From positions 1,536,001-1,600,000 of the forward strand of contig CP084166.1 of NCBI GenBank assembly GCA_021513695.1: a stretch of 64,000 nt of DNA, read 5' to 3'. Position 1 is the stretch's first letter. Each line of letters opens with the position of its first letter. Shown piece by piece: positions 11,883-63,670 of the stretch. The position numbers were made by a program, and so were the translations under genes. The DNA is from Candidatus Heimdallarchaeum aukensis. GTDB lineage: Archaea > Asgardarchaeota > Heimdallarchaeia > Heimdallarchaeales > Heimdallarchaeaceae. Below the pieces are notes generated by a model. It was not told where the DNA came from, did no database searches, and worked only from the letters and a program-made list of their open reading frames with translations.

Positions 11883-13037
11883 ATGAATTCAAAAAAGAAT
11901 GATCCACTTGAAGAAAAAGATATAGTTGTTAAACAGACTCTTACAAGTGGACCTCTATTTAGTGAATTACTTGAACGATATAATAAAGAGAACATAACTA
12001 TTGGTGTTTTAGGTTCTCATTCTGCTTTAGATGTTTTAGATGGAGCAAAAAGAGAAGGATTTAGAACCTTAGTTGTCTGTGAAAAAGGGAGAGAAGAGCC
12101 ATATATCCGATTTAAAAGGATAATAGATGAGATTATTACTCTGGACCATTTTTCTGATATTTTTGATATTCAAGATGATTTAATCAATAAGAACACAATA
12201 TTTGTTCCAAACAGGAGTTTTACTGTTTACTGTGGAGCAAATAGAATAGAAAGAGGATTTAGAGTTCCAATTTTTGGAAGTAGAAATCTATTAGGAGTAG
12301 AAGAAAGACTAGGACCACACAATTATTACCAGATTTTGGATCAAGCAACTATAAAATATCCACGAGTTTATAATTCTCCTGATGAGATTGATGGCCCTGT
12401 AATAGTAAAAATGCCTCATGCAAAACAAAGAGTTGAAAGAGGATTTTTCATTGCCAAAAATAAAGAGGATTTCGAAAAAGAGTTTGAAAAAAGAGTCATA
12501 GAGGGAATAATAAAAATAGACGATTTAAAAGAAGCTTCTATAGAAGAGTTTGTATCGGGTGTTCCATTCAACTTCAACTTTTTCTATTCACCACTCTTTG
12601 ATAGAGTAGAATTAATGGGTATTGATAGGAGATTTGTAACTGACTTAGATGGAATTGTTCGAATCCCAGCAGAACAACAACTTAAGTTAGGATTAAAAGA
12701 AGAGATGAAAGAGATAGGTAATTTTGCTGTTACTCTTCGAGAATCAATGCTTAGATATGTTTTTCCAATGGGTGATTATTTTGTTGAAGCAACAAAAAAA
12801 CTCTATCCTCCAGGAATAATAGGGCCCTTTGCACTACAAACAATGGTAACAAAGGATTATGAATTCAAAGTTTTTGATGTAAGTATGAGAATGGGGGGAG
12901 GAACAAATTCATTCATGGGAATTGGTAGTAATTATTCCTCAATATACTGGGGAGAACCAGTTTCAGCTGGAAGGAGAGTGGCAATGGAAATTAAATTTGC
13001 TGTAAAACAACAAAGGTTAGCTTACATAGTCACTTAA
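11883..13037 (+). CDS. purP: 5-formaminoimidazole-4-carboxamide ribonucleotide (FAICAR) synthetase PurP, ATP-grasp
   Basis: N-terminal LGSHSALDVLDGAKREGF (PurP signature region), ATP-grasp C-terminal half, and purine-biosynthesis neighbourhood (guaA downstream). Confidence 0.65.
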   Translation: MNSKKNDPLEEKDIVVKQTLTSGPLFSELLERYNKENITIGVLGSHSALDVLDGAKREGFRTLVVCEKGREEPYIRFKRIIDEIITLDHFSDIFDIQDDLINKNTIFVPNRSFTVYCGANRIERGFRVPIFGSRNLLGVEERLGPHNYYQILDQATIKYPRVYNSPDEIDGPVIVKMPHAKQRVERGFFIAKNKEDFEKEFEKRVIEGIIKIDDLKEASIEEFVSGVPFNFNFFYSPLFDRVELMGIDRRFVTDLDGIVRIPAEQQLKLGLKEEMKEIGNFAVTLRESMLRYVFPMGDYFVEATKKLYPPGIIGPFALQTMVTKDYEFKVFDVSMRMGGGTNSFMGIGSNYSSIYWGEPVSAGRRVAMEIKFAVKQQRLAYIVT

Positions 13038-13299
13038 TTGCAGAAAAATGCAATAATTGTTTTTTACCATTTTAAAAAAACAAGAAAGATTTATACAATC
13101 ACCTATTTTTCTCATATTTTTGTCATCGTCAGACTCAGAGAAAAGTTTGTATTTGCAAAATGTTGTAAAGATGTTTTTATGGAAAATCTTTGAAAAAGGC
13201 TATAAAAAAAGCGAAAATGATAAGAATGAGCAAAATTGAGTTAGAAAAATAACTAAAAAAATATATACCATTCATTTTCGGTTGGTTTGAGGACCAATC

Positions 13300-50834: not shown

Positions 50835-51452
50835 GTGAGTAAAATGTTTGGAAACTTTATGAGATGGTTATTAGGAACTCAAAAATCAAGTAGAGACCAT
50901 ATAGTAAACCTTAAACTAACTATTCGCAGACTAGAAAGAGCTCAAAGGAAACTGGAGAGAGATGAATCAAGAATACAACTAAAAATGCGAACAGCTATTC
51001 AGCGTGGTGATTTAGAAGGTGCCCGTCTTTATGCTACAGATATTGTTCGTTCTCGTAAGTGGGTTTTAGGTTACCAGCGTTTAGTTTCTCGTATTAATGG
51101 TCTTATTTTTAAACTAGAACGAGCTGATTCTGCTGCTAACTTGGCAGCTGAAATGCATTCTATTGCAGGAGCTCTTCGACAAGCTAACGCTCAATTAAAT
51201 GTTCCTGATTTAGATCATGTTATTCAAGACATGGAACGTAGTATTGATGGAATTGAGGATTCAACTGAAACAATTGAAGATGGAATTGATGATCTTCTTA
51301 TTGCTGATACCGACCCAGCTGAAGTCGATAGGTTAATTGACCAAACAGCTACAGAGATGGGTGTTAGTGTAGGAGGAGAACTCCCTTCAGTAAGCGCTGT
51401 TGCAACAGACGATCTCGAGGAAGAGATTCAAAAATTAAGGAAAAAAGAGTAA
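50835..51452 (+). CDS. ESCRT-III (Snf7/CHMP family) protein
   Basis: 205 aa. N-terminal basic helices (LKLTIRRLERAQRKLERDE...), an acidic C-terminal half and a terminal LEEEIQKLRKK MIM-like helix. Confidence 0.75.
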   Translation: MSKMFGNFMRWLLGTQKSSRDHIVNLKLTIRRLERAQRKLERDESRIQLKMRTAIQRGDLEGARLYATDIVRSRKWVLGYQRLVSRINGLIFKLERADSAANLAAEMHSIAGALRQANAQLNVPDLDHVIQDMERSIDGIEDSTETIEDGIDDLLIADTDPAEVDRLIDQTATEMGVSVGGELPSVSAVATDDLEEEIQKLRKKE

Positions 51453-51467
51453 ATATGAGGTGTTTAT

Positions 51468-52127
51468 ATGGGTATGAAAAACTGGTTATTTGGAACCAAA
51501 CGCAAGGATGATGCTGAAGCTTTAGCTACACTCAAAGCTCAGATCAATCGATATGAGCACGAGTCCCGCAATTTAGAACGTCAAGCTGATGAACAAAAAT
51601 CTTTAGCTGCTAAGATGTTAAAGTCGGGTAATAAAGCTGGAGCTAAACAAGCTCTTAAGCGTCGAGCTATTTATATGAAACGTTTAAATCAGGTTCAAAA
51701 TATGCTAATGAACCTTCAGAGTCAGATTGATAGTATTCAAACTGCAACCTCTACTGTTGAAACAGTAAAGGCAATGGAGTTAGGTACGAAAGTTGTCAAG
51801 ACGAAGATGCAAGAAGTTGATGTAGAGAAAACTGAACGTGTAATGGATGAAGTTATGAGTCAACGTGATGAAATTGAAATGATGACAGAAGCTTTATCTG
51901 ATACTGCACTAAGTGAGAGCATTTTAGATTACGAAGATGATGTCGCAATTGATGATCAACTTGCTCAATTAGAAGCCGAGATGAATCTTGGTAAAACAGA
52001 AGAATTACCAGATCTTTCAGATCTTCCTTCAACTCCATCAGAAAAACCGACTGAAAAAGAAGAAGATACTTCTGACCTTGAAGCCGAATTAGCTTCTCTT
52101 AAGAAGAAGTTAAGTGATGACAAATAA
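51468..52127 (+). CDS. ESCRT-III (Snf7/CHMP family) protein, second paralog (Vps20/32/60-like; begins MG)
   Basis: 219 aa. Same basic-then-acidic helical hairpin organisation, ending ELASLKKKLSDDK. Lies directly upstream of Vps4. Confidence 0.75.
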   Translation: MGMKNWLFGTKRKDDAEALATLKAQINRYEHESRNLERQADEQKSLAAKMLKSGNKAGAKQALKRRAIYMKRLNQVQNMLMNLQSQIDSIQTATSTVETVKAMELGTKVVKTKMQEVDVEKTERVMDEVMSQRDEIEMMTEALSDTALSESILDYEDDVAIDDQLAQLEAEMNLGKTEELPDLSDLPSTPSEKPTEKEEDTSDLEAELASLKKKLSDDK

Positions 52128-52254
52128 TAATAATCAAATTCTTTTTTCAATTCTTTTTTTCATCATTTTAGAAACGAACAGTTTTTTAACGATAATGATG
52201 TTACTAGTTTAGTAATTCAATTAATAGGATTATTCAGTTAGAGAGGTTAAAGAA

Positions 52255-53400
52255 TTGAGCGCGCAAGGACTGATTGAACACGCACGTAAATTTGCAAAAA
52301 AAGCTTATGAACTTGATAAGGCAAAACAATACAATGAGGCAATACCACTTTATCTCGACGCTGCAGAAGCTCTAATGAAAGCAATAAAATTTGAAAGAAA
52401 TCCACAAGTGGGAAAGACATTAAAGAAAAAAGCAGAGATGTACATTGAACGAGCAAAAGATCTAAAAGAAATTATTGAGAAAAAAGCTGAAAAGGGGGCA
52501 GAAACAGGGTCAGACGAAGAATCTGATAAATTAGAAGGAGCAATTAGCGATATCATAGTTACAGAAAAGCCATCAGTTACTTTGGATGATATTGCAGGAC
52601 TAGAAGAAGCAAAACGGAATCTTCGAGAAGCAATAGTGTTACCTCTTGTAAGACCAGACTTATTTAGTGGTGCAAGAAGACCATGGAAAGGGATTTTACT
52701 TTTTGGCCCCCCAGGATGTGGAAAAACTCTTTTAGCAAAAGCAACAGCTGCAGAAGTAGAAGCTACGTTTTTTAATGTTAGTGCGTCCGCGGTTATATCC
52801 AAATGGTTAGGAGAATCTGAAAAATTAGTTAATACATTATTTAAAATTGCTCGTGAAAGGCAACCAAGTATAATTTTCATAGATGAAGTAGATGCTCTTA
52901 CCGGAGCACGTGGTGGCGAGCATGATGCTATGCGCAGAGTTAAAACTGAATTATTAACTTCTATGGATGGTTTATCTAGCTCTGCTCAAGATCGTCTTGT
53001 AGTTATTGGGGCTACTAACCTTCCTGAGTCTATTGATGGAGCTTTTCGCCGTCGTTTTGAGCGTCGTATTTACATTAAGCTTCCAGATTTTGAAGCGCGT
53101 AAAGCTATCTTTCAACTAAATGTCAAAGGAGTGGACTTAGCTCCCGATGTTGATTTTGAATCTTTAGCAGAGATTACAGAAGGTTATTCTGGAGCAGATA
53201 TTGCTATGGTTTGTCGCGATGCTATTATGACTCCTATTCGTGAACTTGATTTATCAGGAGACATTCATGACCCCAATATTAAAGCCAGACCAGTTACACA
53301 AAAAGATTTTCTTGAGTCTATTCAGTCAGTTAATCCTTCTGTAAGTGCAGAAGAAATCGAGAAATATGAGAAATGGAATGAAGAATTTGGTTCAGCGTAA
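52255..53400 (+). CDS. Vps4-like AAA+ ATPase with an N-terminal MIT domain
   Basis: MIT-like three-helix N-terminus (AKKAYELDKAKQYNEAIPLYLDAAEAL), Walker A GPPGCGKT, Walker B IIFIDEVD and a second region of homology; 381 aa. Confidence 0.85.
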   Translation: MSAQGLIEHARKFAKKAYELDKAKQYNEAIPLYLDAAEALMKAIKFERNPQVGKTLKKKAEMYIERAKDLKEIIEKKAEKGAETGSDEESDKLEGAISDIIVTEKPSVTLDDIAGLEEAKRNLREAIVLPLVRPDLFSGARRPWKGILLFGPPGCGKTLLAKATAAEVEATFFNVSASAVISKWLGESEKLVNTLFKIARERQPSIIFIDEVDALTGARGGEHDAMRRVKTELLTSMDGLSSSAQDRLVVIGATNLPESIDGAFRRRFERRIYIKLPDFEARKAIFQLNVKGVDLAPDVDFESLAEITEGYSGADIAMVCRDAIMTPIRELDLSGDIHDPNIKARPVTQKDFLESIQSVNPSVSAEEIEKYEKWNEEFGSA

Positions 53401-53707: not shown

Positions 53708-55161
53708 CTACTGGGGCTGCAACCAATGGCTGAGCCCTTGGCAAACAGTGAAATGAGTGAGACTAAATTTACGACCAGTGAGTAGATCAGTAATAGTTGT
53801 TGCACGGGGGCGGAAAAGAGAACTAAGGAGCAGACGAGCGATATTCATTGCTCCTGTTAGATCAGAGTGGAAGGTGTAATTGCAAGAGGGACAATAAACT
53901 AACCCTCTAACGGGGCGGGTAACTTTTTTTCCGCAACGGGCACAGTGAGATGATGTTCCTCTTTCCTCTATCGTCAGAATTCGGTGAGAGGGAAAACCTC
54001 TAAGTATTAGTGCACGACGGATAAAAGAAAGAACAAGAGCATAGTTCCACTGGTGAAGTTTTCTTCGTGACTTGCGATTAGTTACTCCCTTATTTTTTTC
54101 TCGTCGAATGTATTTAGGATAACCTATAACAACGAAAAGATTATAGATCCGAGCATAAACCTCTATTGTCCACACGATAGCACTTACAAATTGATTGATA
54201 TACGCTCGTCTGACGTTTCTATACCTCCGACGGAGACGTTTGAGAAAACGGTAAACTTGGTGTTTTTTACCCGATTGGTCGTTTAAAGCTGCTTTCCTCT
54301 GAAGACGGGAAAGTTTGAGTTTATATCGATGATTAACTTTATTCCACTGTTTGGTATACTAGAACTTTATTTCTTTACTTGTTACCTTCTTTTTCGGGGT
54401 CAGTAGCACTTCTACCGCAGGAATGTTTATCCCTAGATCTATTCCCAGCACAGCTGGGGGAAGAAAAGAAGAGTCAGAAGAAAGATTATCTCCCTGAAGG
54501 AAAGAAGAAGGAAGAACTTTTGAATGAAAATATATCCACCATTCACGTGTAGAACGTTTGTATCTTATTTCTAAACTTTTTACTCTTTCTTTAATTCTTT
54601 TTGATGAAACTCGCTCATCTCTAAAGGTAACCACAATCGCTGATGAAAACGTGTTTTTCTTTTCCACCTATCTAACGAGTCTCGTATTCCTACCCACCAA
54701 CGAGAAAGAGTGTTATTCTTATCTTTTGGTAGATGGACGAGGATGAACCTTTTTTTATTAATTAATTGTCTTCTTGCTCTCTTTCTTGGAGGACGAGTAT
54801 TGTTAGGTCTATATCCTTGCTCATATAGTTGCACAGCTATATCTCTACATTCTTGAAACTCATCGTGAGAACAATAGGGAAACATTTTCTTCATATCGTG
54901 AGGAACAGTCGTTCTTCTTTCTTCCTCTTTTTTTACTCTCGAGGTCGTTAATGTCAATTCGTCTAATTTTCCTTTATGTACTTTTATTTTCCCTTCTTTT
55001 GCTTTAATACCTATTTTTTTTCTGTTATGGTGTATAATTCTCACATACTTTTCTATTATTCTAGTATCTCTCCCCGTTATTCTCCTTAACTTTTCTTTTT
55101 TTCTCGTCGTCAATACTTCATTCTTCACTCTCACCTTTAACGTTTTGACGACGTCCTCCAT
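53708..55161 (-). pseudogene. Degenerate TnpB (IS200/IS605 OrfB; OMEGA-type RNA-guided nuclease family) split into at least three ORFs by frameshifts
   Basis: N-terminal part LKVRVKNEVLTT...; C-terminal zinc-finger block CARCGKKVTRPVRGLVYCPSCNYTFHSDLTGAMNIARL. Three overlapping minus-strand ORFs (54580-55161, 54359-54667, 53708-54175). GC content is well above the surroundings. Confidence 0.65.
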
Positions 55162-55329: not shown

Positions 55330-56130
55330 ATGGCTACAATGGAAAAACAAAAAGATAATGAATTTGAGCAAATTGATCTTGAAAAATTGAAAGAAGAAAA
55401 GAAAATATCAGAAGATAAGCTTAAGCTTATTGAAGCCAGTATTAAGGGATTAAAAGTTTCAGAAGAAGAACTGAAGTCCACGAAACCTATTGTTAGAGAA
55501 GAAGCAAGATTAGAACTAACAGAAGACACAAAGACGAAGCTAATTAAAGAATTTGAGCAAAGTTTACCTGATTGGGTTAACAAGCCTTGGATGTATGTCA
55601 CCCCAAAAAAGGCAAATCAAGTTGAGTCTTGGTTAGACAGTTGGTCATCAGTCATGCTTGATTATACAAAGAAATTTGTTATTCATATTGTTAATGTCAA
55701 TTCTCTTAGAGAAACTTATCCTTTTTGTAATAAGAAAATAAGAAAAGAACTTACCATCGATCAAATTCGTGATATCATCGATTTTCTTGAAACAAAGGGT
55801 TTTGCTCTTTGGATAAATGATAGGACAAAATTCTTTGAGAAACTTTTTGCAAAGATACTTGGAAAACCTTTAACAAAAAAGATCCGTGCAAAGATAGAAT
55901 GGAAAACAAAAGAAGAATTTGCTGAAGATTTACTTAAATGGATGATTGAAACCGGTAGAGTAGTTGAAGTTCACTCTTTATATGATTTAACAAAATATGA
56001 ACAACCCTGGTCTTCTTTACCTTCAGATGATTTAATCCATGTATGCAATTTACTCGTAGAAAAAGGTTCTGCTAGATGGTTAAATAGAGAAAGAACTATA
56101 ATTTCCTTTGAAGCAACAAAGGTATTCTAA
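55330..56130 (+). CDS. ESCRT-II Vps25-like protein (tandem winged-helix) with an N-terminal charged coiled-coil extension
   Basis: About 170 aa C-terminal region with the PWMYVTPKKANQVESWLDSW...IRDIIDFLETKGFALWI pattern resembling Vps25 WH domains. Sits in the ESCRT locus. Confidence 0.5.
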   Translation: MATMEKQKDNEFEQIDLEKLKEEKKISEDKLKLIEASIKGLKVSEEELKSTKPIVREEARLELTEDTKTKLIKEFEQSLPDWVNKPWMYVTPKKANQVESWLDSWSSVMLDYTKKFVIHIVNVNSLRETYPFCNKKIRKELTIDQIRDIIDFLETKGFALWINDRTKFFEKLFAKILGKPLTKKIRAKIEWKTKEEFAEDLLKWMIETGRVVEVHSLYDLTKYEQPWSSLPSDDLIHVCNLLVEKGSARWLNRERTIISFEATKVF

Positions 56131-56183
56131 CTTTAATTTTTATTTTAATTTTATTTATTTACTATTTTTTGTGATGTAATGCT

Positions 56184-56621
56184 ATGTTTAAAAATTATAT
56201 ATTGAATAGACTTTTGAGATTTATGTCTTTAGACGATGAAGAATTACAAAGGATTCGAGAAAAAAAGGCACAACAACTTAGGCAAATTTTAGAACAGAGA
56301 AAATCAAAAATGGAACAACTTAAACAAGAGGAAACAGCGCCAAAAAGCATTACAAAAGAGGACAAGTATCGTTTAATGAATTATTTTCTAACTGATGACG
56401 CTTTTTCTTATTGGAAGAGTCTATATGAAAATCCACAAAAGCATAATACAGCAGAAACAATTTTCATTAATTTGCTCTATCTGATTAAGATTGGTTTTAT
56501 GGAAGGAAAACTTATCTCTCTTCTAGGAATTAAAAAATTAGAAAGAAAAATAGATAATATTCCTTCTAAAATCACAATAAAGAGAAAAGGAGAAAAAGAA
56601 AGATCCAAAGTTTTGGATTAA
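56184..56621 (+). CDS. PDCD5/TFAR19-like putative DNA-binding protein
   Basis: N-terminal LDDEELQRIREKKAQQLRQILEQRK matches the PDCD5 family opening motif, and the C-terminal LISLLGIKKLE...ITIKRKG is consistent with it; 145 aa. Confidence 0.4.
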   Translation: MFKNYILNRLLRFMSLDDEELQRIREKKAQQLRQILEQRKSKMEQLKQEETAPKSITKEDKYRLMNYFLTDDAFSYWKSLYENPQKHNTAETIFINLLYLIKIGFMEGKLISLLGIKKLERKIDNIPSKITIKRKGEKERSKVLD

Positions 56622-56697
56622 TAATTGACTTTTACTTATTAGGTTACATTTATTTAGGATAATGAAAATAAAGTATTAGAAAGGAGCTGATGGATAA

Positions 56698-56934
56698 ATG
56701 AAGTTGAGTATTGTTACCGCAATAGGAGGAGGTCTTTTAGAATTAGATGTTGATAGCCATCAAACAATTGCACAACTTAAAAGAGAAGTTTCAAGAATTA
56801 AAAAGATACCTGCAAATACAGTTATTTTGGTTCATCATGGTCAACAGTTAGATGATGGTGAAACAATTAAGAGTTGCGGATTACAAGAAGGAGATAAACT
56901 CTATCTAATTGCAAGAACAAAAGGTGGACTTTAG
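56698..56934 (+). CDS. Ubiquitin-like beta-grasp protein ending ...KGG-L
   Basis: HGQQLDDGETIKSCGLQEGDKLYLIARTKGG aligns with ubiquitin [30 protein letters not shown]. 78 aa, with a single residue after the di-Gly. Confidence 0.8.
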   Translation: MKLSIVTAIGGGLLELDVDSHQTIAQLKREVSRIKKIPANTVILVHHGQQLDDGETIKSCGLQEGDKLYLIARTKGGL

Positions 56935-57009
56935 CTTTTCTATTTCAAAATTTTTTTAGAAGAATAGAAACTGTTTTATTACTTCTAAAAGATATTTTTG
57001 TGAAAGTGG

Positions 57010-58014
57010 ATGTCTAAAGAAGGTAGATATGCGAGACAGACTCTCATACCTGGTTGGAATCAGAAGAAACTCAACAAATCAACAGTTATTATTGTTGGTG
57101 TGGGAGCAATTGGATCATATGTATCAACGATTTTAGCTTCTTCAGGAGTAAAAAATCTCATTCTAATTGATTTTGATACTATTGAAATCTCTAATCTTAA
57201 TCGTCAATTACTATTTCGGGATGGAGATATTGGAAAATCCAAATCTGAAATTGCAGCTATGCGATTATCGGAACTAAATCCAGATATTAACATTACCTTT
57301 CATCATAAGAAGATGCAAGATTTACCTATTTCTATTTACAAAAAAGCAGATGTCATTGTGGCTTGTCTTGATACCTTCATTGGAAGAAGATGGATAAATT
57401 CACTTGCTGTAAAAATAAACAAACCTTTAATTTTAGGTGGAATGTTTGCTTTTCTAGGAGATGTTCAAGTTGTTTTACCAAAAAAAACTGCTTGCTTTGA
57501 TTGTCAACCTTTAGTTGCAGAAAGAGAACTTGCGCAAGCTTGTACTCCATTCGGAGAAGAAAGGAAGAAAAACAGAGAAGAAAAAGAGGATGAAGCGAAA
57601 TTACCATCTGTAGCCACATTGTCTGCGATTATCGGAGGAATTATGGCACAAGAAGCCTTAAAACTTCTTTTAGACATAGGTGAACCAATCAAGAATTATC
57701 TTTTCTATGATGGATTACATAATGCAACAACAATAATTGAACTTGCAAGAAGAAAAAAAGATTGTCCAACTTGTGGAGAACTATATGAGTTGGAACAAGT
57801 CGAATTTGTGGTAAATAAAGATAATACCGTCAAAGAACTATTAATCCAATTAGGTTTACAATTCGGACTTGAGAGCCCAGACATTATGATTAAAGGGAGG
57901 ATACTCCCTCACGATTCAAAAATCCAAGAACTAGGTATAAAAAATAACATGAAGGTTTTTGTAATGGACAAAAATTTAGCTTCACCAATCAAGTTAAAGT
58001 TAAAGATTGAGTGA
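57010..58014 (+). CDS. E1-like ubiquitin-activating enzyme (ThiF/MoeB/UBA fold) with a C-terminal extension
   Basis: Rossmann GVGAIGSYV with IDFDTIEISNLNRQ; CFDC...CPTC zinc tetrad; about 70 extra C-terminal residues. Lies immediately downstream of the ubiquitin-like gene. Confidence 0.8.
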   Translation: MSKEGRYARQTLIPGWNQKKLNKSTVIIVGVGAIGSYVSTILASSGVKNLILIDFDTIEISNLNRQLLFRDGDIGKSKSEIAAMRLSELNPDINITFHHKKMQDLPISIYKKADVIVACLDTFIGRRWINSLAVKINKPLILGGMFAFLGDVQVVLPKKTACFDCQPLVAERELAQACTPFGEERKKNREEKEDEAKLPSVATLSAIIGGIMAQEALKLLLDIGEPIKNYLFYDGLHNATTIIELARRKKDCPTCGELYELEQVEFVVNKDNTVKELLIQLGLQFGLESPDIMIKGRILPHDSKIQELGIKNNMKVFVMDKNLASPIKLKLKIE

Positions 58015-58025
58015 AAAAAGAAAAT

Positions 58026-58751
58026 TTAGGTGTGTGACAGTCCAGGGAAATAATATTTAGTTCCTTCAGCATAGGAACTATCTACTCTTGCTATACCATT
58101 TTCTTCAAAAAATGATAAGCAACGATTAATTCTTTCCTCTGCCCACCCTGTTCTAAGTAATAGATCTTCTTTTGTTACAAATCCTGTTCTTGAAGCAATG
58201 TTTAATATTACATCATGGTCGGGACTGAATTCAACAGGAGCAAATTCTACTAGTTTCACTCCAGATTCTAAAACTTTGAAAGGTGGAATTAATTTTGAAT
58301 TTATGAGTTTCTCTAATGAACGATACAAGTCATCAATTGTAACTAGTTTTCCAGGTCTAGTTTTATTTAATTGGGTAAACAATTCACCTACAGACATTAT
58401 ACCTCCATTTTCTTCTATAAGTTTTTGACCCAAATCCATGATTTCGTTTGCTAAAACATCATAGAAACCTTTTCCTGTTAATCTATCTTTTAGAGTTGGA
58501 GCTTCTTTCCATTCATATCTCCCTATTTCTGTAGGTAAGCCTAGTTCTTCTCGCAGGCCAGCAAGTTTTTCATAATATTCTTTATTTTCAACTATTTTAT
58601 CACCATATTTCTTTTCAAATTTCTTTAGTTGCTTTTTAACTTGTTTAATATTTTCCAACATTTGTTCTAATTCTTTTATCATTAATTCGGCTTCTTTAAC
58701 TTGGAAAGCTGACTTCACTTTTAATTTCTTTTCAATATCTCTTAAGCCCAA
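58026..58751 (-). CDS. ESCRT-II Vps22/Vps36 (EAP30-domain)-like protein
   Basis: N-terminal coiled coil followed by a tandem winged-helix region (GGIMSVGELFTQLNKTRPG...IDDLYRSLEKL) resembling EAP30. Confidence 0.55.
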   Translation of the reverse strand: MGLRDIEKKLKVKSAFQVKEAELMIKELEQMLENIKQVKKQLKKFEKKYGDKIVENKEYYEKLAGLREELGLPTEIGRYEWKEAPTLKDRLTGKGFYDVLANEIMDLGQKLIEENGGIMSVGELFTQLNKTRPGKLVTIDDLYRSLEKLINSKLIPPFKVLESGVKLVEFAPVEFSPDHDVILNIASRTGFVTKEDLLLRTGWAEERINRCLSFFEENGIARVDSSYAEGTKYYFPGLSHT

Positions 58752-58823: not shown

Positions 58824-59132
58824 TTAAAAAAGGAGAGGAAGTCTTCTAATCCACTCTTTAATTGAATTCATAAGCTTTTTAGATTCATTTGGAGGAAGAA
58901 AAGCTGCTAGTTTGTCTTTATAGTTTTTGTATAGTTTTTGATAAACGCTGTCCATTTCATCAACAATTGAATCATTTACCAAATTGATTTTTTTAACAAG
59001 ATGTTTTATCTCTTCCAACTCTTCTAAGATGTATGAACAGTCAATTTTTATTTCTAAGAGATCCATCAACTCGAATAAACTATCTTTTGCTTTATTATAG
59101 GTATTTTCTAAAGATTTTCTCCTAGAAATCAT
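58824..59132 (-). CDS. Small helical hypothetical protein in the ESCRT locus (possibly a Vps28-C/Vps37-like ESCRT-I accessory)
   Basis: 102 aa, predicted all-helical. Lies between the UEV/Vps23-like and EAP30-like genes on the same strand. No motif recognised. Confidence 0.3.
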   Translation of the reverse strand: MISRRKSLENTYNKAKDSLFELMDLLEIKIDCSYILEELEEIKHLVKKINLVNDSIVDEMDSVYQKLYKNYKDKLAAFLPPNESKKLMNSIKEWIRRLPLLF

Positions 59133-59168
59133 GTTTACTCCTCTAAAAAGGCTGGATAAAAGATAGGA

Positions 59169-60638
59169 CTACATATCTTTTAAAATTCGTCTAAATTCGT
59201 TTAACCATCTTGATGCTTGGAATTCTAGTTTTTCACAATCGTCTTCATTTATTATTTCACTTGGTTTATAATTTGAAAGAATGTCTTTCCAGTTTTTCAT
59301 ATCGCTGAGCATCCAATGATCTTGCGGAATAGATGGAAACGAGTGCAAAACATGAATTAGCTCTTCTACGTCAGCCAACAGCAAATCAGCTCGTGCGACT
59401 GATTTAAGCCTTGTTAGATCAATTAATTCAATTGCAGCTGAAACAAAATCAGCTGTTTTTACAGGCATTTTCTTTAAGGATTCAAATGGTATCATTTCAA
59501 CATCTTTAGTTCCAGTTCCTTCAGCCATTTGTAGCAATCTCATTCCTTTGTCAAATCTATTTAGCAGATTTTCTTGCTCTATAAACGAATCGAGATCAAA
59601 TCCACCTAATTGTTCCAGTTTCATTCTTGTTTTGAAAACTGTTCTTATTAGTGATCTTAACTGCTTTTTATATGCAACTTGCTCAATCTCACCATTTTCA
59701 TACCCTCTCGCTAAATTATCTAATGTCACTATTGCTGCATATAAATCAGCTTCAAAATCTAATCTTTTATCTAAATCACTAGGCATTACTTGTCCTCCAA
59801 CATTTTCTAAATAAGCTAATTTTTTATTTGTCTTATAACTTTCCACTGAATATTTTCTATAAAGTTTCAAGTAATCAACACTTGAAAGATCTCCATCATC
59901 AAATTTCTCATTTAATAGCTCTAATAAGTCATTAGATGCTCTTGAACTTGCTTTTAAATCATCGGTTACAGAAATTGTAAGTTCTTTTAATGAATGTGAA
60001 GGCTCAGCTTTCTTGATTAGAGCAGCTCTTTTTTCCTCAATTTGTTTATTTAGTTCGTTTATCTGCTGCTGATACGCTTCTATCTCTGCTTCAATAGTAC
60101 TTTTTTCTATCGATGTTTGACTCCGTTCATTAAAGGATGGTACACTTTGCTTACGTACAGTGTGACGTGAAACTGTTCTTGGTTTCATCGGTTGAACTAC
60201 AGATCTAGACACACTCCTAGCTGTAGACATATGCTTTGTTCTTAATGGTCTTGCAGGAACATTAGCAAATAATCGCCGAATATCATTTATAACTTGATAA
60301 ATATGATAGCGTGGTTTCCATTGAGCGAGTATTTGCAAACTAAGAAAGTCATTGTCGTCAACATTAGGATGATTTACTTTAGGAGTAATTTCAACTTGAG
60401 GAGGAATTCTTGGGAACTCTGGAGAGATATATATTGTAGCATAAACAGTTATCTTCGTTCCTTGAATTATCCCTACAGGGCCTTTCCACTTTCTTAAATT
60501 GCCTCCTACTGGCTCAAATCCTTCAACATTATTATAAATTAATTGCATCTCATTAGCAAGAATCTGATCTAGAGAAATTTGTCTCACCTTTACTCTTCTA
60601 TTATTGTTATAAACTTCAAAGTTTAAAAAATATTGCAT
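59169..60638 (-). CDS. UEV-domain (ubiquitin E2 variant) protein with a central coiled coil; ESCRT-I Vps23/Tsg101-like
   Basis: The N-terminal UBC fold has the HPNV motif, but the catalytic Cys position reads FLSLQIL rather than ICLDIL, so it is an inactive E2 (UEV). A long coiled-coil region and a C-terminal helical domain follow. Confidence 0.65.
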   Translation of the reverse strand: MQYFLNFEVYNNNRRVKVRQISLDQILANEMQLIYNNVEGFEPVGGNLRKWKGPVGIIQGTKITVYATIYISPEFPRIPPQVEITPKVNHPNVDDNDFLSLQILAQWKPRYHIYQVINDIRRLFANVPARPLRTKHMSTARSVSRSVVQPMKPRTVSRHTVRKQSVPSFNERSQTSIEKSTIEAEIEAYQQQINELNKQIEEKRAALIKKAEPSHSLKELTISVTDDLKASSRASNDLLELLNEKFDDGDLSSVDYLKLYRKYSVESYKTNKKLAYLENVGGQVMPSDLDKRLDFEADLYAAIVTLDNLARGYENGEIEQVAYKKQLRSLIRTVFKTRMKLEQLGGFDLDSFIEQENLLNRFDKGMRLLQMAEGTGTKDVEMIPFESLKKMPVKTADFVSAAIELIDLTRLKSVARADLLLADVEELIHVLHSFPSIPQDHWMLSDMKNWKDILSNYKPSEIINEDDCEKLEFQASRWLNEFRRILKDM

Positions 60639-60729
60639 TCAAAAAAAAGAGTCTTTTCTTGAGAAAAAAATATATGAAAAAAAATTGATTATAATTCTAA
60701 ATTACAATAGAACCTAGGAATAAACTCTT

Positions 60730-61272
60730 TTACTTTCTATTTTTGACTAAAAGTGTAGCTAGTTTCACAAATGCTTCTTGAACATGTTCTCCTGTAAGTG
60801 CACTTGTTTTTATGAAATCCAAACTATTGATTTTGTTTTGTAATGATTTACATTCATCATCTGATACAGCAATTTTATCTTCTAAATCATTTTTATTTCC
60901 AACTAAGATGGTAAGGGTGTTCTTTCCACAGTTTTTAACAAGTTCAGAGTTCCATTTCTCTAGATCAGTTAGTGTTGAATTCCTGGTTAAATCGAAAACC
61001 ATCAGTGCTGCTTTTGCTCCTTTAAAGAAAGTATGTCTTATAAACCTAAATCTATCTTGTCCTGCTAGATCCCAAATTGAAAGAGCTACAACTGTATTGT
61101 CCTCTAATGTAACAAATTTCTCACTCGGTTCCATACCTATTGTCATCAGATAACTTTGTTCAAAACGATTATGAACAAAACGTTGTACAAGAGATGTCTT
61201 TCCTACAGCGGCGGCACCTAATAGAAGTATTTTGAAATTGAAATCAGGACGAATTGAACGCATTATTCTCAA
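60730..61272 (-). CDS. Ras/Rab-like small GTPase
   Basis: G1 GAAAVGKTSL, G3 WDLAGQDRF, G4 GNKNDL, G5 SAL; 180 aa. Confidence 0.85.
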   Translation of the reverse strand: MRIMRSIRPDFNFKILLLGAAAVGKTSLVQRFVHNRFEQSYLMTIGMEPSEKFVTLEDNTVVALSIWDLAGQDRFRFIRHTFFKGAKAALMVFDLTRNSTLTDLEKWNSELVKNCGKNTLTILVGNKNDLEDKIAVSDDECKSLQNKINSLDFIKTSALTGEHVQEAFVKLATLLVKNRK

Positions 61273-61275
61273 CTT

Positions 61276-61572
61276 TTACATTTTTTTTGCTTTTACAAGC
61301 TCTTCTTTTAAACTTTTAAGATAGTATGTTTCAAAATTTTCTTCTGCGCGTTTAATAGTAGTAAGAGAAATACAGAGATCTAATATGAATTCATATTGTT
61401 CTTTTTTCTCTTTCTGTGGTTTGAATGCTTTAAATTTTTTTAATAAATACTCGGCTAACTTTGACGCTTCTTTTTTTGTTAATGTTCCTTGCTCATATAA
61501 ATTAATAATTAACTCCATTTTCTCTATAGTAATATCATTGTTAATCTCTTTTAACGACAAAATTTTACTCAT
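61276..61572 (-). CDS. Small helical hypothetical protein, apparently co-operonic with the small GTPase (4-nt spacing)
   Basis: 98 aa, K/E-rich. No motif recognised. Confidence 0.3.
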   Translation of the reverse strand: MSKILSLKEINNDITIEKMELIINLYEQGTLTKKEASKLAEYLLKKFKAFKPQKEKKEQYEFILDLCISLTTIKRAEENFETYYLKSLKEELVKAKKM

Positions 61573-61791
61573 ATGCTATCTATTCATTTTTTTCGGTTAA
61601 TATATGTTTTGCTGTTAAACTGGTTAGAAAATTGCTATCAGGGACTTATAATTAGATCAATAAATCAGATATTATATTTAAAATTGAGTAAGAAATTTCA
61701 ACAAGGATAACCTTTAGAAAAAGATAAAATAACCAAATAACTATTTTTGGGAGAAATATAAATTTAAAAATGGAAAAAAAAAATAATTTTA

Positions 61792-62538: not shown

Positions 62539-63162
62539 TTATTTTTCATCATCAGTTTGCTTCTCTTCTTTTTCTTCTTCATTTTCTTCTTCAAAGAAGT
62601 CATCATCAAACATTAATACACTGTCTAAAACAGAGTCAAGGGAAGGTCTTTCAGGAGGAGTTAATGGTATATCTGCTTTATCTGCAACAGAAATATCTAA
62701 AGATGAAAGATCTGCTCTCGCTCTTCTTCTCGTTGTTGGAGTCGTACTAACATATTGAATATTCTTTAACATTGATTTAACAGAACTGATTTCTTCTTTC
62801 AAATCTTTCAGAGAACTGAGTGCATTAATTTTTTCTAAAAGCTCATCTACTTTCTCTAACTCTCTTTTGGTTTTCTCTTCAAACTTTTTACTTGTTTCAG
62901 TTATCTTTGCAAACTGGCCTTCAGTTATGTTTATTCTTCTAGGAATTGAGGGTTCAGTGGGTGGAAAAAACAATGCAGGAGATGCTTTTAATTCTTCAAG
63001 AGAACCAAATTTTTCACTATGGTGTGCCTTGATTGACGCAAGAATTGCAGTTATAGGGTTTCCATATTCCGTCATTAAATCTTCAATCATATCCCATATT
63101 GCTATAGGAATTGGTACTTCTATTATTCTAGCTATCCTTTGCTTCTTTTTTTGAGAATACAT
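62539..63162 (-). CDS. Hypothetical protein with an acidic C-terminal tail
   Basis: No motif recognised. Poly-E/D C-terminus. Confidence 0.35.
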   Translation of the reverse strand: MYSQKKKQRIARIIEVPIPIAIWDMIEDLMTEYGNPITAILASIKAHHSEKFGSLEELKASPALFFPPTEPSIPRRINITEGQFAKITETSKKFEEKTKRELEKVDELLEKINALSSLKDLKEEISSVKSMLKNIQYVSTTPTTRRRARADLSSLDISVADKADIPLTPPERPSLDSVLDSVLMFDDDFFEEENEEEKEEKQTDDEK

Positions 63163-63397: not shown

Positions 63398-63670
63398 TTA
63401 TGCAGTGTCTGTTACTTTGCTTTCTTCTTGTAGGAACTCAAAAGTTTCACGTAACTCAGGAGCTAAGTAATAATAGACCGACCGCATATCTGATAGATTA
63501 GACATTTTCTTTAAAATGCCTTTTTCTAGAAGGCGTCTAATACCATAACGAACTGTTCGTTCTGGTTGTTCTACAGATGCTAAGATCTGTTTCTGTGTCA
63601 TTGGTCCTTTTTCGTCCAATACTTTTATTATATCTTCTCCGCCTCGGGGTAATTTTCGTCTTTTCATCAT
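63398..63670 (-). CDS. Small winged-helix transcriptional regulator
   Basis: 90 aa. MTQKQILASVEQPERTVRYGIRRLLEKGIL is a typical HTH recognition-helix region of the MarR/TrmB/ArsR type. Confidence 0.6.
   Translation of the reverse strand: MMKRRKLPRGGEDIIKVLDEKGPMTQKQILASVEQPERTVRYGIRRLLEKGILKKMSNLSDMRSVYYYLAPELRETFEFLQEESKVTDTA

Follow-up and report, generated by a model that had tools for sequence, protein, structure and literature searches.

The closest described counterpart of the locus studied here is the ubiquitin-ESCRT cluster of AB_125 (HeimAB125_14040-14070; Hatano et al. 2022, PMC9192718; Makarova et al. 2024, PMC10936438). Its ESCRT-I fusion protein, HeimAB125_14070, binds ubiquitin, dimerises and contacts Vps22 in yeast two-hybrid experiments, and the Vps22 protein HeimAB125_14050 forms a homodimer; Vps25 was characterised in the same study (PMC9192718). 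In AB_125 the fusion gene is followed by a small gene (cog.004115) and then by Vps22, Vps25, Vps4 and two ESCRT-III genes. As in most of the family, PDCD5-Ub-E1 lies just upstream of the fusion and a GTPase gene pair several kilobases farther away. According to the entries for AB_125 contig 92 in PMC10936438, orthologs of the Rab-like GTPase (cog.003850) and of p207 (cog.009137) occur in the same neighbourhood. Neither the account of the cluster in PMC9192718 nor the corresponding entries in PMC10936438 flag the GTPase as an ESCRT component.

We analysed a window of 64,000 nucleotides from the genome of Ca. Heimdallarchaeum aukensis (31% GC). The window carries the orthologous fusion (51% identical) and the same succession of small gene, Vps22, Vps25, Vps4 and two ESCRT-III genes. 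Unlike in AB_125, PDCD5-Ub-E1 is shifted across Vps22, the GTPase pair abuts the fusion, and a TnpB remnant lies between Vps4 and Vps25. The region is probably the ESCRT-I/II arm of the H. aukensis ubiquitin-ESCRT supercluster together with a separate GTPase module, which a genus-specific local rearrangement has placed beside it.

ESCRT genes of the window

Four co-directional minus-strand ORFs were recovered at exactly the coordinates given in the first-pass annotation: the 98-aa helical protein h98 (61276..61572), a Rab-like small GTPase (60730..61272), the ESCRT-I fusion (59169..60587; longest ORF to 60638) and the 102-aa helical protein h102 (58824..59132). All four are conserved protein-coding genes, with counterparts in 29 species-level genomes and on additional metagenome contigs. 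The run continues with a fifth minus-strand gene, the ESCRT-II component Vps22/EAP30 (58026-58751; Pfam EAP30 1.4e-22), 72 nt past the h102 gene. At 31% GC, short helical ORFs rich in K and E come about easily, and neither h98 nor h102 has a Pfam match above threshold, as expected if the small ORFs were spurious or non-functional spacers in a chance arrangement of an AT-rich genome. However, full-length orthologs with 35-63% amino acid identity exist for h98 in more than 15 species-level genomes and for h102 in more than 25, with invariant motifs, conserved positions and conserved start contexts. This conservation refutes a chance origin and leaves such a reading with a negligible probability.

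On the plus strand, a convergent block (55330..58014) assigned by Pfam and synteny contains Vps25 (55330-56130), a PDCD5-like gene (56184-56621; asCOG label and a weak dsDNA_bind match), ubiquitin (56698-56934) and E1/ThiF (57010-58014). A second plus-strand block (50835..53400) encodes two Snf7 proteins (50835-51452, Pfam Snf7 1.2e-19; 51468-52127, Pfam Snf7 1.2e-26) and Vps4 (52255-53400; Pfam AAA, MIT and Vps4_C). The minus strand further carries p207 (62539-63162), an uncharacterised member of cog.009137 with nothing significant in Pfam, and p90 (63398-63670), a small winged-helix protein (Pfam HTH_24 2.8e-5).

The gene initially described as UEV/Vps23-like, 489 aa as the longest ORF, is the already published Heimdallarchaeaceae UEV-Vps23(stalk/steadiness box)-Vps28 triple fusion and an ortholog of HeimAB125_14070. 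Its identification as an ESCRT-I protein thus holds, with a full Vps28 added and the start revised. The UEV domain spans ~60222-60500, the predicted Vps23 coiled-coil/steadiness box ~59835-59960 and the complete Vps28 ~59181-59750 (Pfam UQ_con 7.2e-12, VPS28 1.4e-11, Vps23_core 2.3e-5, UEV 1.7e-3). The VPS28 match (45 bits; cutoff 24.5) covers profile positions 2-188 of 188, comprising the N hairpin and the C four-helix bundle in the C-terminal 190 aa; this part also matches the Xenopus Vps28 CTD (2J9W; E 0.0025) and yeast Vps28-N (E 0.3). Vps23_core (residues 227-268) scores 24.7 bits, below its cutoff of 26.8; the steadiness box was accepted by Hatano et al. for the AB_125 ortholog (PMC9192718). 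In the UEV domain, a serine within HPNVDDNDFLSLQIL takes the place of the E2 catalytic cysteine, which no ortholog has at this position, and HPNV...FLSLQIL stands where E2s have the ICLDIL motif. All 48 homologs of the fusion belong to Heimdallarchaeaceae where a lineage is given, except for one record labelled Bathyarchaeota. Translation starts at the family-wide conserved GTG at 60587 (472 aa). We rejected the ATG at 60638, which sits within a conserved promoter motif and is accompanied by upstream stop codons in relatives. The spacer between the GTPase and the fusion is therefore 142 nt and not 91 nt.

Downstream of the fusion, h102 is preceded by a Shine-Dalgarno-like GAGGAG 5 nt upstream and is found between fusion and Vps22 in 33/33 first-set loci that reach past the fusion end, and in five metagenome loci. 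The gene is not new: Table S2 of PMC10936438 lists its AB_125 ortholog under cog.004115 as 'Vps28 protein, C-terminal region', while Hatano et al. do not mention it (PMC9192718). A relationship of the 102-aa protein to the Vps28 C-terminal domain, which the first pass had raised as a check, is carried by this published assignment; our own profile comparisons are negative or weak. In hhalign, h102 aligned to the fusion CTD with P 0.17, or 0.027 over just 16 columns once the Xenopus CTD was added. Its HMM scored 6.6 bits on the Xenopus CTD, equal to reversed-sequence controls, and no Vps28 match was obtained in PDB or Pfam. AlphaFold2 (AF2) predicts four helices at a pLDDT of only 63.5.

Going by the AB_125 orthologs (PMC9192718), the UEV domain would bind ubiquitin and the fusion would dimerise and contact a homodimeric Vps22. 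Vps25 would then recruit a Vps20-type ESCRT-III subunit and Vps4, and h102 may serve as an accessory helical subunit at the ESCRT-I/ESCRT-II interface.

Promoter-like elements and gene order in relatives

The TATA-like element AAAACATATATTAA (61597..61610, minus strand) precedes the ATG of h98 by 24 nt, a spacing typical of leaderless mRNA. Judging from the window sequence and cross-locus conservation, it is the predicted promoter of the h98-GTPase unit; every locus inspected has the motif AAAYWTATATTAA equally far upstream of h98. A second, BRE/TATA-like motif of 24 nt, AATGCAATATTTTTTAAACTTTGA (60616..60639, minus strand), is located 29-52 nt upstream of the GTG start of the fusion and occurs once in the window against 0 expected by chance. 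Of 34 loci, 30 contain a single copy of its 18-nt core, AATGCAAYRTTTTTTAAA, in each case immediately before the fusion gene, and a search with the full motif brought up 11 more fusion loci in metagenomes. This invariance marks it as the predicted promoter/operator dedicated to the ESCRT-I fusion. The motif was not found at h98 or at any other window gene, and there is thus no sign of a common regulon. Vps22 has its own conserved TATA-like element upstream.

The GTPase stop codon is followed by three oligo-T runs (T8, T7 and T8; 60641..60684, minus strand, read off the window sequence) that resemble archaeal terminator signals, with T6/T4/T6 at the same place in H. endolithica. T-runs and TATA-like strings are common at 31% GC, which makes the T-run evidence weak; the invariance of the motif across species is the real argument.

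Since the invariant 24-nt motif and the oligo-T runs fill the spacer between GTPase and fusion, the fusion appears to have its own promoter. The first pass had grouped the four genes into one operon. This is unsupported, because h98, the fusion and Vps22 each have a conserved promoter-like element and T-runs follow the GTPase; computationally, the four genes read as two separately promoted units. In the first, h98 and the Rab-like GTPase would be expressed from their TATA-like promoter, probably as a leaderless mRNA, with the GTPase ORF translationally coupled to h98. The second would comprise the fusion and h102 under the family-invariant promoter, followed by Vps22 with its own element.

Gene order across relatives points in the same direction. 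Only in the genus Heimdallarchaeum does the GTPase immediately precede the fusion, namely in H. aukensis, in H. endolithica and on one near-identical contig from a metagenome; a distance of 91-143 nt was found only in H. endolithica and in a Logan contig identical to the window. In 17 other loci the h98-GTPase pair is 2.9-9.6 kb from the fusion, so that adjacency is absent in 17/19 lineage-level loci. This includes the closest non-congeneric relatives: in L031 (fusion 71% identical) the pair is 4.8 kb away in the ancestral order, and in L033 (65% identical) it is 9.6 kb away and inverted, with ProRS and other genes between. GTPase-ESCRT-I adjacency is thus confined to one genus and not conserved in relatives, the outcome that the first-pass annotation had named as speaking against its proposal. 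In other family members, PDCD5-Ub-E1 occupies the site directly upstream of the fusion that the GTPase pair holds in the window, and the pair is usually flanked by p90 and p207 in the order p90, h98, GTPase and a convergent p207. Juxtaposition of pair and fusion arose a second time, independently, in a lineage of only 52% identity (L042), where the two are arranged head-to-head across a shared 136-nt spacer; in Heimdallarchaeum they are co-directional.

Some of these observations would also fit a true functional operon, with h98 and the GTPase on one transcript with ESCRT-I and their products part of a GTP-switched ESCRT-I complex. The window genes are co-directional with short gaps, the pair stays within 10 kb of the ESCRT/ubiquitin cluster wherever a locus includes 7 kb or more of upstream sequence, and the juxtaposition has two independent origins. 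The UEV-Vps23/ubiquitin cluster of Hodarchaeia is also reported to contain a Rab-like GTPase (bioRxiv 10.1101/2023.07.25.550441), and h98 bears a weak likeness to Vps28-N (see below). However, the rarity of adjacency, the invariant fusion promoter and T-runs in the spacer and the restriction of the promoter motif to the fusion argue against such an operon. Moreover, Asgard genomes are rich in small GTPases, which makes neighbourhood alone weak evidence, and local inversions in a rearrangement-prone region keep genes close without selection. We consider a functional operon distinctly unlikely, and describe the GTPase-ESCRT relationship as a conserved neighbourhood rather than a conserved operon. 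The locus is a known ESCRT cluster whose gene arrangement is peculiar to the genus; as two separately promoted units that stand side by side only there, we regard the 'operon' as largely ordinary, with a single modest new lead.

The h98 protein and its Rab-like GTPase

The assignment of the second gene to the Ras/Rab-type GTPases is borne out. Its longest ORF (180 aa, TTG start) matches Pfam Ras/Roc/Arf (Ras 3.6e-45), and among solved structures the best match is a Thorarchaeota Rab (7EZB; 3.9e-37), followed by Rab4 (Rab4B) and Rab11. The AB_125 ortholog is listed as cog.003850, 'Rab-like GTPase', in Table S2 of PMC10936438. The more likely start is the ATG at 61263, which yields 177 aa in agreement with the public gene call, and the gap to the h98 gene is then 12 nt instead of 3. 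All GTPase motifs are intact (G1 GAAAVGKT, switch I YLMTIGMEP, G3 WDLAGQ, G4 NKND, G5 SAL); the G motifs, switch I including its threonine and the catalytic glutamine are invariant across 16 orthologs, none of which has a C-terminal cysteine (prenylation motif) in its tail.

The h98 and GTPase genes abut start to stop in 19/19 first-set loci and in all four later loci with h98 before the GTPase (L039, L042, L045 and, by its gene call, L033), with gaps of -17 to +21 nt. Because the two are adjacent at every locus where either was seen, h98 is very probably the cognate partner of the GTPase, and may act as an obligate 1:1 adaptor or effector-type helical protein. Members of the h98 family were found in Heimdallarchaeaceae and nowhere else; a search of 1.84 billion proteins returned seven representatives, including P0057, an unrelated bacterial repeat protein. 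The ortholog does not appear among the AB_125 locus rows compared from Table S2 (PMC10936438).

AF2 predicts four helices and no strands for h98 (pLDDT 75); both small proteins are predicted to be all-helical, as first proposed. Because h98 is all-helical and not of the alpha/beta fold, we rejected a roadblock/LC7/MglB or longin regulator, an option named in the first pass; none of 12 h98 members matched Robl_LC7 or longin in Pfam. RILP matches to two members were at noise level (E 0.057).

The first-pass annotation proposed a cognate effector, GAP or GEF. The cognate pairing stands, and no known GAP, GEF or GDI family matched h98 by sequence or fold. A related explanation casts h98 as a minimal helical GTPase regulator, either a GAP with Arg75 as a finger or a GDI/chaperone-like holder, physically unconnected to ESCRT and positioned by inherited synteny. 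Bacterial ExoS/YopE/SptP, four-helix-bundle GAP domains that supply an arginine finger, provide a precedent. Strict pairing and start/stop overlap with a GTPase that retains its catalytic glutamine and invariant switch I would also suit a regulator. The strongest conservation of h98 is in the helix 3-4 turn (DLCISLSTIxRAEGxFE), where D65, S69, T72 and R75 are invariant alongside L66, C67, I73, F80 and E81; K34, S87 and L88 are invariant elsewhere in the alignment, and the N-terminal, Vps28-like half is less conserved. However, the arginine-finger idea is based on conservation alone, and the sole register-consistent match across independent comparisons is Vps28-N. Taken with the lack of a matching regulator family, this makes a pure GTPase regulator unlikely in our assessment.

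The likeness to Vps28 emerged as follows. In PDB, the yeast Vps28 N-terminal core accounts for all four top matches of the h98 profile (E 0.09-0.17), and the h98 HMM scores 17.2 bits on the yeast Vps28-N fragment, a value reached by 0/6000 shuffles. The true Heimdall Vps28 profile obtains only E 0.3 on the same yeast chain, in the same register as h98. Among 15 neighbouring domains compared by hhalign, Vps28-N was the best target for h98 (P 0.012, probability <4%), and the family has no match to Pfam VPS28. The resemblance of h98 to the Vps28 N-terminal hairpin is therefore weak, register-consistent and below family thresholds.

Comparison with known Rab, ESCRT and GTPase-partner systems

The cluster of Hodarchaeia, another lineage of Heimdallarchaeia, resembles the window in that a Rab-like GTPase is encoded next to ubiquitin and an ESCRT-I UEV protein. 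By asCOG label, the one Rab-like GTPase among the rows compared for Hodarchaeon LC_3 is cog.000674, in contrast to cog.003850 here, and the reported partner in Hodarchaeia is Yip1 rather than an h98-like protein.

In the eukaryotic ESCRT-I headpiece, hairpins of Vps23, Vps28 and Vps37 come together (PDB 2F66, 2P22, 6VME). The fusion likewise contains the Vps23-core and Vps28 hairpins, and the weak alignment of h98 with the Vps28 N-terminal hairpin keeps a consistent register. Asgard archaea have no recognised Vps37 (PMC9192718), and a free hairpin protein could therefore fill the third headpiece position. The likeliest mechanism in our view, though still less likely than not, is that h98 docks its GTPase, through the Vps28-N-like hairpin, on ESCRT-I or Vps22 at a steadiness-box surface. 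A more specific version, which we regard as doubtful, has h98 as a free-standing Vps28-N/steadiness-box hairpin that takes the place of Vps37 and docks the prenylation-less GTPase on the fusion (or on the steadiness box that Asgard Vps22 is reported to carry at its N-terminus). In that case a GTP switch would gate the ubiquitin-dependent assembly of ESCRT-I in Heimdallarchaeaceae, and the repeated juxtaposition of pair and fusion in Heimdallarchaeum and L042 would reflect selection. We know of no eukaryotic ESCRT-I subunit that is paired with a small GTPase, and to our knowledge direct Rab-ESCRT-I coupling has no eukaryotic example.

Gene pairs of a small GTPase and a roadblock/longin protein (MglA/MglB-like) exist in Asgard archaea. 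The h98-GTPase pair shares their layout, a small GTPase gene beside a partner of ~100-130 aa, but h98 differs from MglB-like partners in being all-helical and in matching none of the roadblock/longin families. In animals, the helical Rab effector RILP bridges the Rab7 GTPase to Vps22/Vps36 of ESCRT-II. Although it shares no homology with h98, the Rab7-RILP-ESCRT-II system offers a precedent for a small helical adaptor that couples a Rab to ESCRT.

Gene layout and start codon of the fusion gene

The four closely spaced minus-strand genes proposed in the first-pass annotation of this Ca. Heimdallarchaeum aukensis window are present, with corrections that include a fifth co-directional gene and a different start codon for the ESCRT-I gene. 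The run comprises h98, a 98-aa helical protein (61276-61572); a 180-aa Rab-like GTPase (60730-61272; Pfam Ras/Roc/Arf, 3.6e-45), with which h98 forms a pair; the UEV-Vps23-Vps28 gene, here called the fusion (longest ORF 59169-60638, 489 aa; UQ_con 7.2e-12, VPS28 1.4e-11 with the full profile, Vps23_core 2.3e-5, UEV 1.7e-3); h102, a 102-aa protein (58824-59132); and, as the fifth gene, Vps22 (58026-58751; EAP30, 1.4e-22). Neither h98 nor h102 has a Pfam match above threshold. Vps25, a PDCD5-like gene, ubiquitin and E1 are encoded on the plus strand, convergent on this run, with two Snf7/ESCRT-III genes and Vps4 further upstream on the same strand. The PDCD5/TFAR19-like gene (56184-56621, plus strand; dsDNA_bind, E 0.014 with the family consensus only) sits in a block with ubiquitin and E1 that is conserved in all loci.

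A frameshifted TnpB/Cas12f-like (IS200/605 OrfB) remnant in three ORF fragments (53708-55161, minus strand; Cas12f1-like_TNB, 4.1e-10) splits Vps4 from Vps25 in the window; the gap between these genes is 27 nt in L031, one of the homologous loci. Locus L011 has a second TnpB-like remnant (11941-13176), here separating h102 from Vps22, and the spacers of the ESCRT cluster appear to be recurrent insertion sites. An Rfam scan of the window returned a marginal SNORD36 (C/D box) match at 51239-51313 on the plus strand (31.9 bits, gathering threshold 30; E 0.38), which falls inside a Snf7 coding sequence and is probably spurious.

The 489-aa ORF encodes the triple fusion characteristic of Heimdallarchaeaceae, UEV-Vps23 (stalk/steadiness box)-Vps28. 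We found 48 homologs at ≥48% identity, including HeimAB125_14070 from Heimdallarchaeota AB_125, a genome with a published ubiquitin-ESCRT cluster; wherever the source gives a lineage it is Heimdallarchaeaceae or Heimdallarchaeota, except for one Bathyarchaeota-labelled record. Every member carries Ser in place of the E2 catalytic Cys, and the C-terminal part matches the Xenopus Vps28 C-terminal domain (CTD; 2J9W) with E 0.0025. Ubiquitin binding, dimerisation and Vps22 interaction have been described for the AB_125 ortholog (Hatano et al., PMC9192718), and the protein was named 'UEV-Vps28' in a 2023 preprint (10.1101/2023.07.25.550441).

The start assigned by the longest ORF, at 60638, is incorrect. 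All loci share a GTG with codons for [RNISV][QKR]I[ST] after it, and in most relatives this GTG is closely preceded by stop codons. The true start is therefore the GTG at 60587, giving a protein of 472 aa, and the annotation should be amended to this codon. The ATG chosen by the ORF finder is part of a 24-nt promoter motif.

Gene order and transcription signals across homologous loci

Gene order was compared across 29 loci from one scan of species-representative genomes, 4 from look-ups of the two closest homologs outside the genus, and 13 from a scan of metagenomes, with gene families assigned by profile searches of the locus ORFs. The loci other than those of the metagenome scan are referred to as the first set. 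Two blocks are constant. h98 lies directly upstream of the GTPase wherever either is seen (19/19 first-set loci and the metagenomic L039, L042 and L045), with gaps of -17 to +21 nt, often as TAAaATG or overlapping ATGAGTAA. Likewise, all 33 first-set loci reaching past the fusion end keep the fusion, h102 and Vps22 next to one another, with h102 strictly conserved in the middle (gaps of 31-70 nt to the fusion and 32-100 nt to Vps22, except for a truncated ORF in L026 and the TnpB-like insertion in L011).

The relative placement of these blocks varies. The first-pass annotation had treated the GTPase and the ESCRT-I gene as members of one operon, a reading that fails the gene-order test: only three loci have the GTPase immediately ahead of the fusion, namely L001 (a contig identical to the window), H. 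endolithica (L002) and the metagenome contig L045, which has the same local gene order. Elsewhere the order is p90, h98, GTPase, p207 (opposite strand), PIG-L, variable genes, PDCD5, ubiquitin, E1, fusion, h102, Vps22 and Vps25 (opposite strand), p90 and p207 being the usual flanking genes of the pair. In loci with the p90-h98-GTPase-p207 order the GTPase and the fusion are 2.9-8.1 kb apart; L031 is one of these, with a fusion sharing 71% identity with that of the window and a GTPase still kilobases away. Because the adjacency is absent from the order of the other loci, we regard it as a derived, genus-level state. One or two inversions do not suffice to reconstruct the Heimdallarchaeum rearrangement, which requires four events or more, and we claim no simple history.

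Two further arrangements were found. In L033 (fusion 65% identical) the pair is inverted and lies 9.6 kb from the fusion, with ProRS and metabolic genes between them. In L042 (metagenome contig Ga0164318_10097629), a deeply branching lineage with a fusion that shares only ~52% identity with all the rest, the pair stands head-to-head with the fusion across a 136-nt spacer (1607-1742) that holds both promoters. A single inversion of the ancestral order could give this arrangement, which is a second, independent juxtaposition of pair and fusion, making two in total. Throughout the family, the pair remains in the neighbourhood of the ESCRT cluster.

Several neighbouring genes deserve mention. p207 (62539-63162, minus strand; asCOG cog.009137, uncharacterised) matches no family and travels with the pair, in most cases facing the GTPase convergently; its middle is predicted to form a coiled coil, and a conserved C-terminal SPPERPxLDSVLDSVL motif precedes an acidic tail. 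p90 (63398-63670, minus strand) encodes a 90-aa winged-helix protein with HTH_24/MarR-like matches below or near cutoffs; it is directly upstream of h98 in most genomes and might either regulate the pair or act as a winged-helix module in its own right. Between the pair and the ubiquitin block, the PIG-L/LmbE deacetylase gene is tandemly duplicated in L031 (6058-7543) and split into two ORFs in L011 and L017. L033 (6720-7100) and L034 (1020-1400), the lineage with the pair 9.6 kb off, have a Robl_LC7 (roadblock) gene beside p207 and PDCD5-ubiquitin.

Transcription signals divide the run as well. The 24-nt motif AATGCAAYRTTTTTTAAASTTTGA occupies 60616-60639 on the minus strand, 29-52 nt upstream of the fusion GTG, with TTTTTTAAA at the same coordinates. 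In a comparison of the 100 nt upstream of the GTG, AATGCAAYRTTTTTTAAASTTTGA was invariant between genomes with proteins only ~50% identical. The motif occurs once in the window, where none is expected by chance, and its 18-nt core is found a single time in each of 30 of the 34 first-set loci, always at this position upstream of the fusion. It is absent before any other gene in the window, and a whole-window search for further copies, as expected of a shared regulon, found none within 3 mismatches. Since its conservation goes far beyond the needs of a plain BRE/TATA element, the motif may also be an operator for some regulator. A metagenome search with the motif recovered another 11 fusion loci and two contigs without cluster gene families; these matches, L035 and L046, are both probably due to chance (the ORFs of L046 encode unrelated proteins, and L035 was judged from the family search alone). 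The element offers a handle for regulation studies and a specific metagenome probe for fusion loci.

Runs of T8, T7 and T8 lie between the GTPase stop and the fusion motif. h98 carries a conserved AAAYWTATATTAA element of its own, placed 24-25 nt before the ATG with leaderless-type spacing; Vps22 is preceded by another conserved TATA-like element, and h102 by only GAGGAG. Based on these conserved signals, we infer that the run comprises two or more units, [h98-GTPase] and [fusion-h102], and that Vps22 may form another. In L013, L014, L015, L017, L022 and L026, a GC-rich inverted repeat with a T-run after it (e.g. gggagtgtgagagggtttttccctcttttttttt) was observed between p90 and the h98 promoter; it has the shape of a bacterial-style hairpin terminator in an archaeal genome.

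The GTPase and its partner h98

The best solved relatives of the GTPase are a Thorarchaeota Rab (7EZB, 3.9e-37), followed by Rab4B and Rab11. The P-loop, switch I SYLMTIGMEPSEK, WDLAGQ, NKxD and SAL are invariant in 16 orthologs, none of which has a C-terminal cysteine. Family-wide identity is ~75% for the GTPase, ~52% for the fusion and ~45% for h98. The AB_125 ortholog is asCOG cog.003850 'Rab-like GTPase' and appears in the locus table of Makarova et al., where it is not flagged as an ESCRT component. The earlier suggestion that the 98-aa protein is a cognate partner of the GTPase is supported by its position directly before the GTPase wherever either gene is seen.

An exhaustive HMMER search of 1.84 billion representatives yielded seven h98 matches, six of them from the same family (77-138 aa); the seventh and only out-of-family match (P0057, 196 aa) is an unrelated bacterial repeat protein. 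No fused (Rosetta-stone) forms were found among these representatives. Pfam searches with members and family consensus sequences gave no ESCRT or GTPase-regulator family, and Pfam VPS28 matched no h98 member or consensus. Matches to YtzH, UPF0175, RILP, Clathrin, RHG29_45_N and eIF3a (PDB) were at noise level, inconsistent across members or below cutoffs, and were rejected.

A 12-ortholog h98 profile searched against all PDB sequences placed the yeast Vps28 N-terminal core in the top four positions (2CAZ, 2F6M, 2P22 and 2F66; E 0.09-0.17). As a calibrator, the genuine Heimdall fusion Vps28 profile reached only E 0.3 against the same yeast chain, in identical register (h98 'aYeeG', yeast 'AYLKD', fusion 'gYenG'). 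The h98 HMM scored 17.2 bits on the yeast Vps28-N fragment, a value reached by 0/3000 random (maximum 13.8 bits) and 0/3000 heptad-preserving shuffles (maximum 15.5 bits); the HMMs built for four further families of the neighbourhood scored ≤3 bits. With hhalign, Vps28-N ranked first among 15 neighbourhood domain alignments (P 0.012), with all probabilities <4%, and several unrelated trafficking families also appeared at noise level. We consider the case for a Vps28-N-type hairpin in h98 to be evenly balanced, and docking of h98 on ESCRT-I or ESCRT-II to be rather doubtful. The most conserved segment of the protein, DLCISLSTIxRAEGxFE at the turn between helices 3 and 4, contains the invariant R75 and might just as well contact the GTPase or provide an arginine-finger surface. 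The predicted structure of h98 was built from 3 sequences and that of h102 from 1.

h102 and comparison with known ESCRT systems

The AB_125 ortholog of h102 (78 aa from a later start) is assigned to asCOG cog.004115, 'Vps28 protein, C-terminal region' (PMC10936438), and is not mentioned by Hatano et al. (PMC9192718). We found no Vps28 match for h102 in PDB or Pfam. Aligned by hhalign to the fusion Vps28-C, h102 gave P 0.17, and 0.027 with the Xenopus CTD added, over 16 columns around a conserved Trp; neither local nor global mode, with or without this domain, produced a convincing alignment. The h102 HMM scores the Xenopus CTD the same as reversed-sequence controls, and a by-eye match between 'ELMDLLEIK' and 'ELIDLTRLK' was recovered by no program and discarded. 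h102 is probably a conserved helical accessory protein of ESCRT-I/II; the published Vps28-C homology is neither confirmed nor refuted here, and the label should be treated with caution.

Our literature searches found no description of h98 and the GTPase as an invariant pair, of a possible Vps28-N-like character of h98, of the fusion promoter motif shared across the family or of the two independent pair-fusion juxtapositions. A Rab-like GTPase always co-encoded with the family-restricted helical h98, which may carry an ESCRT-I-type hairpin, stays near the ubiquitin-ESCRT cluster throughout an entire archaeal family; coupling of the pair to ESCRT is a possibility. The module bears on the question of whether ESCRT sorting and small-GTPase switching were already connected in the close relatives of eukaryotes.

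The ESCRT-I/II genes of the window are orthologs of proteins characterised from Heimdallarchaeota AB_125, and the ESCRT-I/II/III-Vps4-ubiquitin cluster is a well-described feature of Heimdallarchaeaceae, to which the core finding adds little. In Asgard archaea, proteins joining Vps28-C to longin domains have been proposed as small-GTPase activators, and a Rab-like GTPase has been noted in the UEV-Vps23/ubiquitin cluster of Hodarchaeia (10.1101/2023.07.25.550441).
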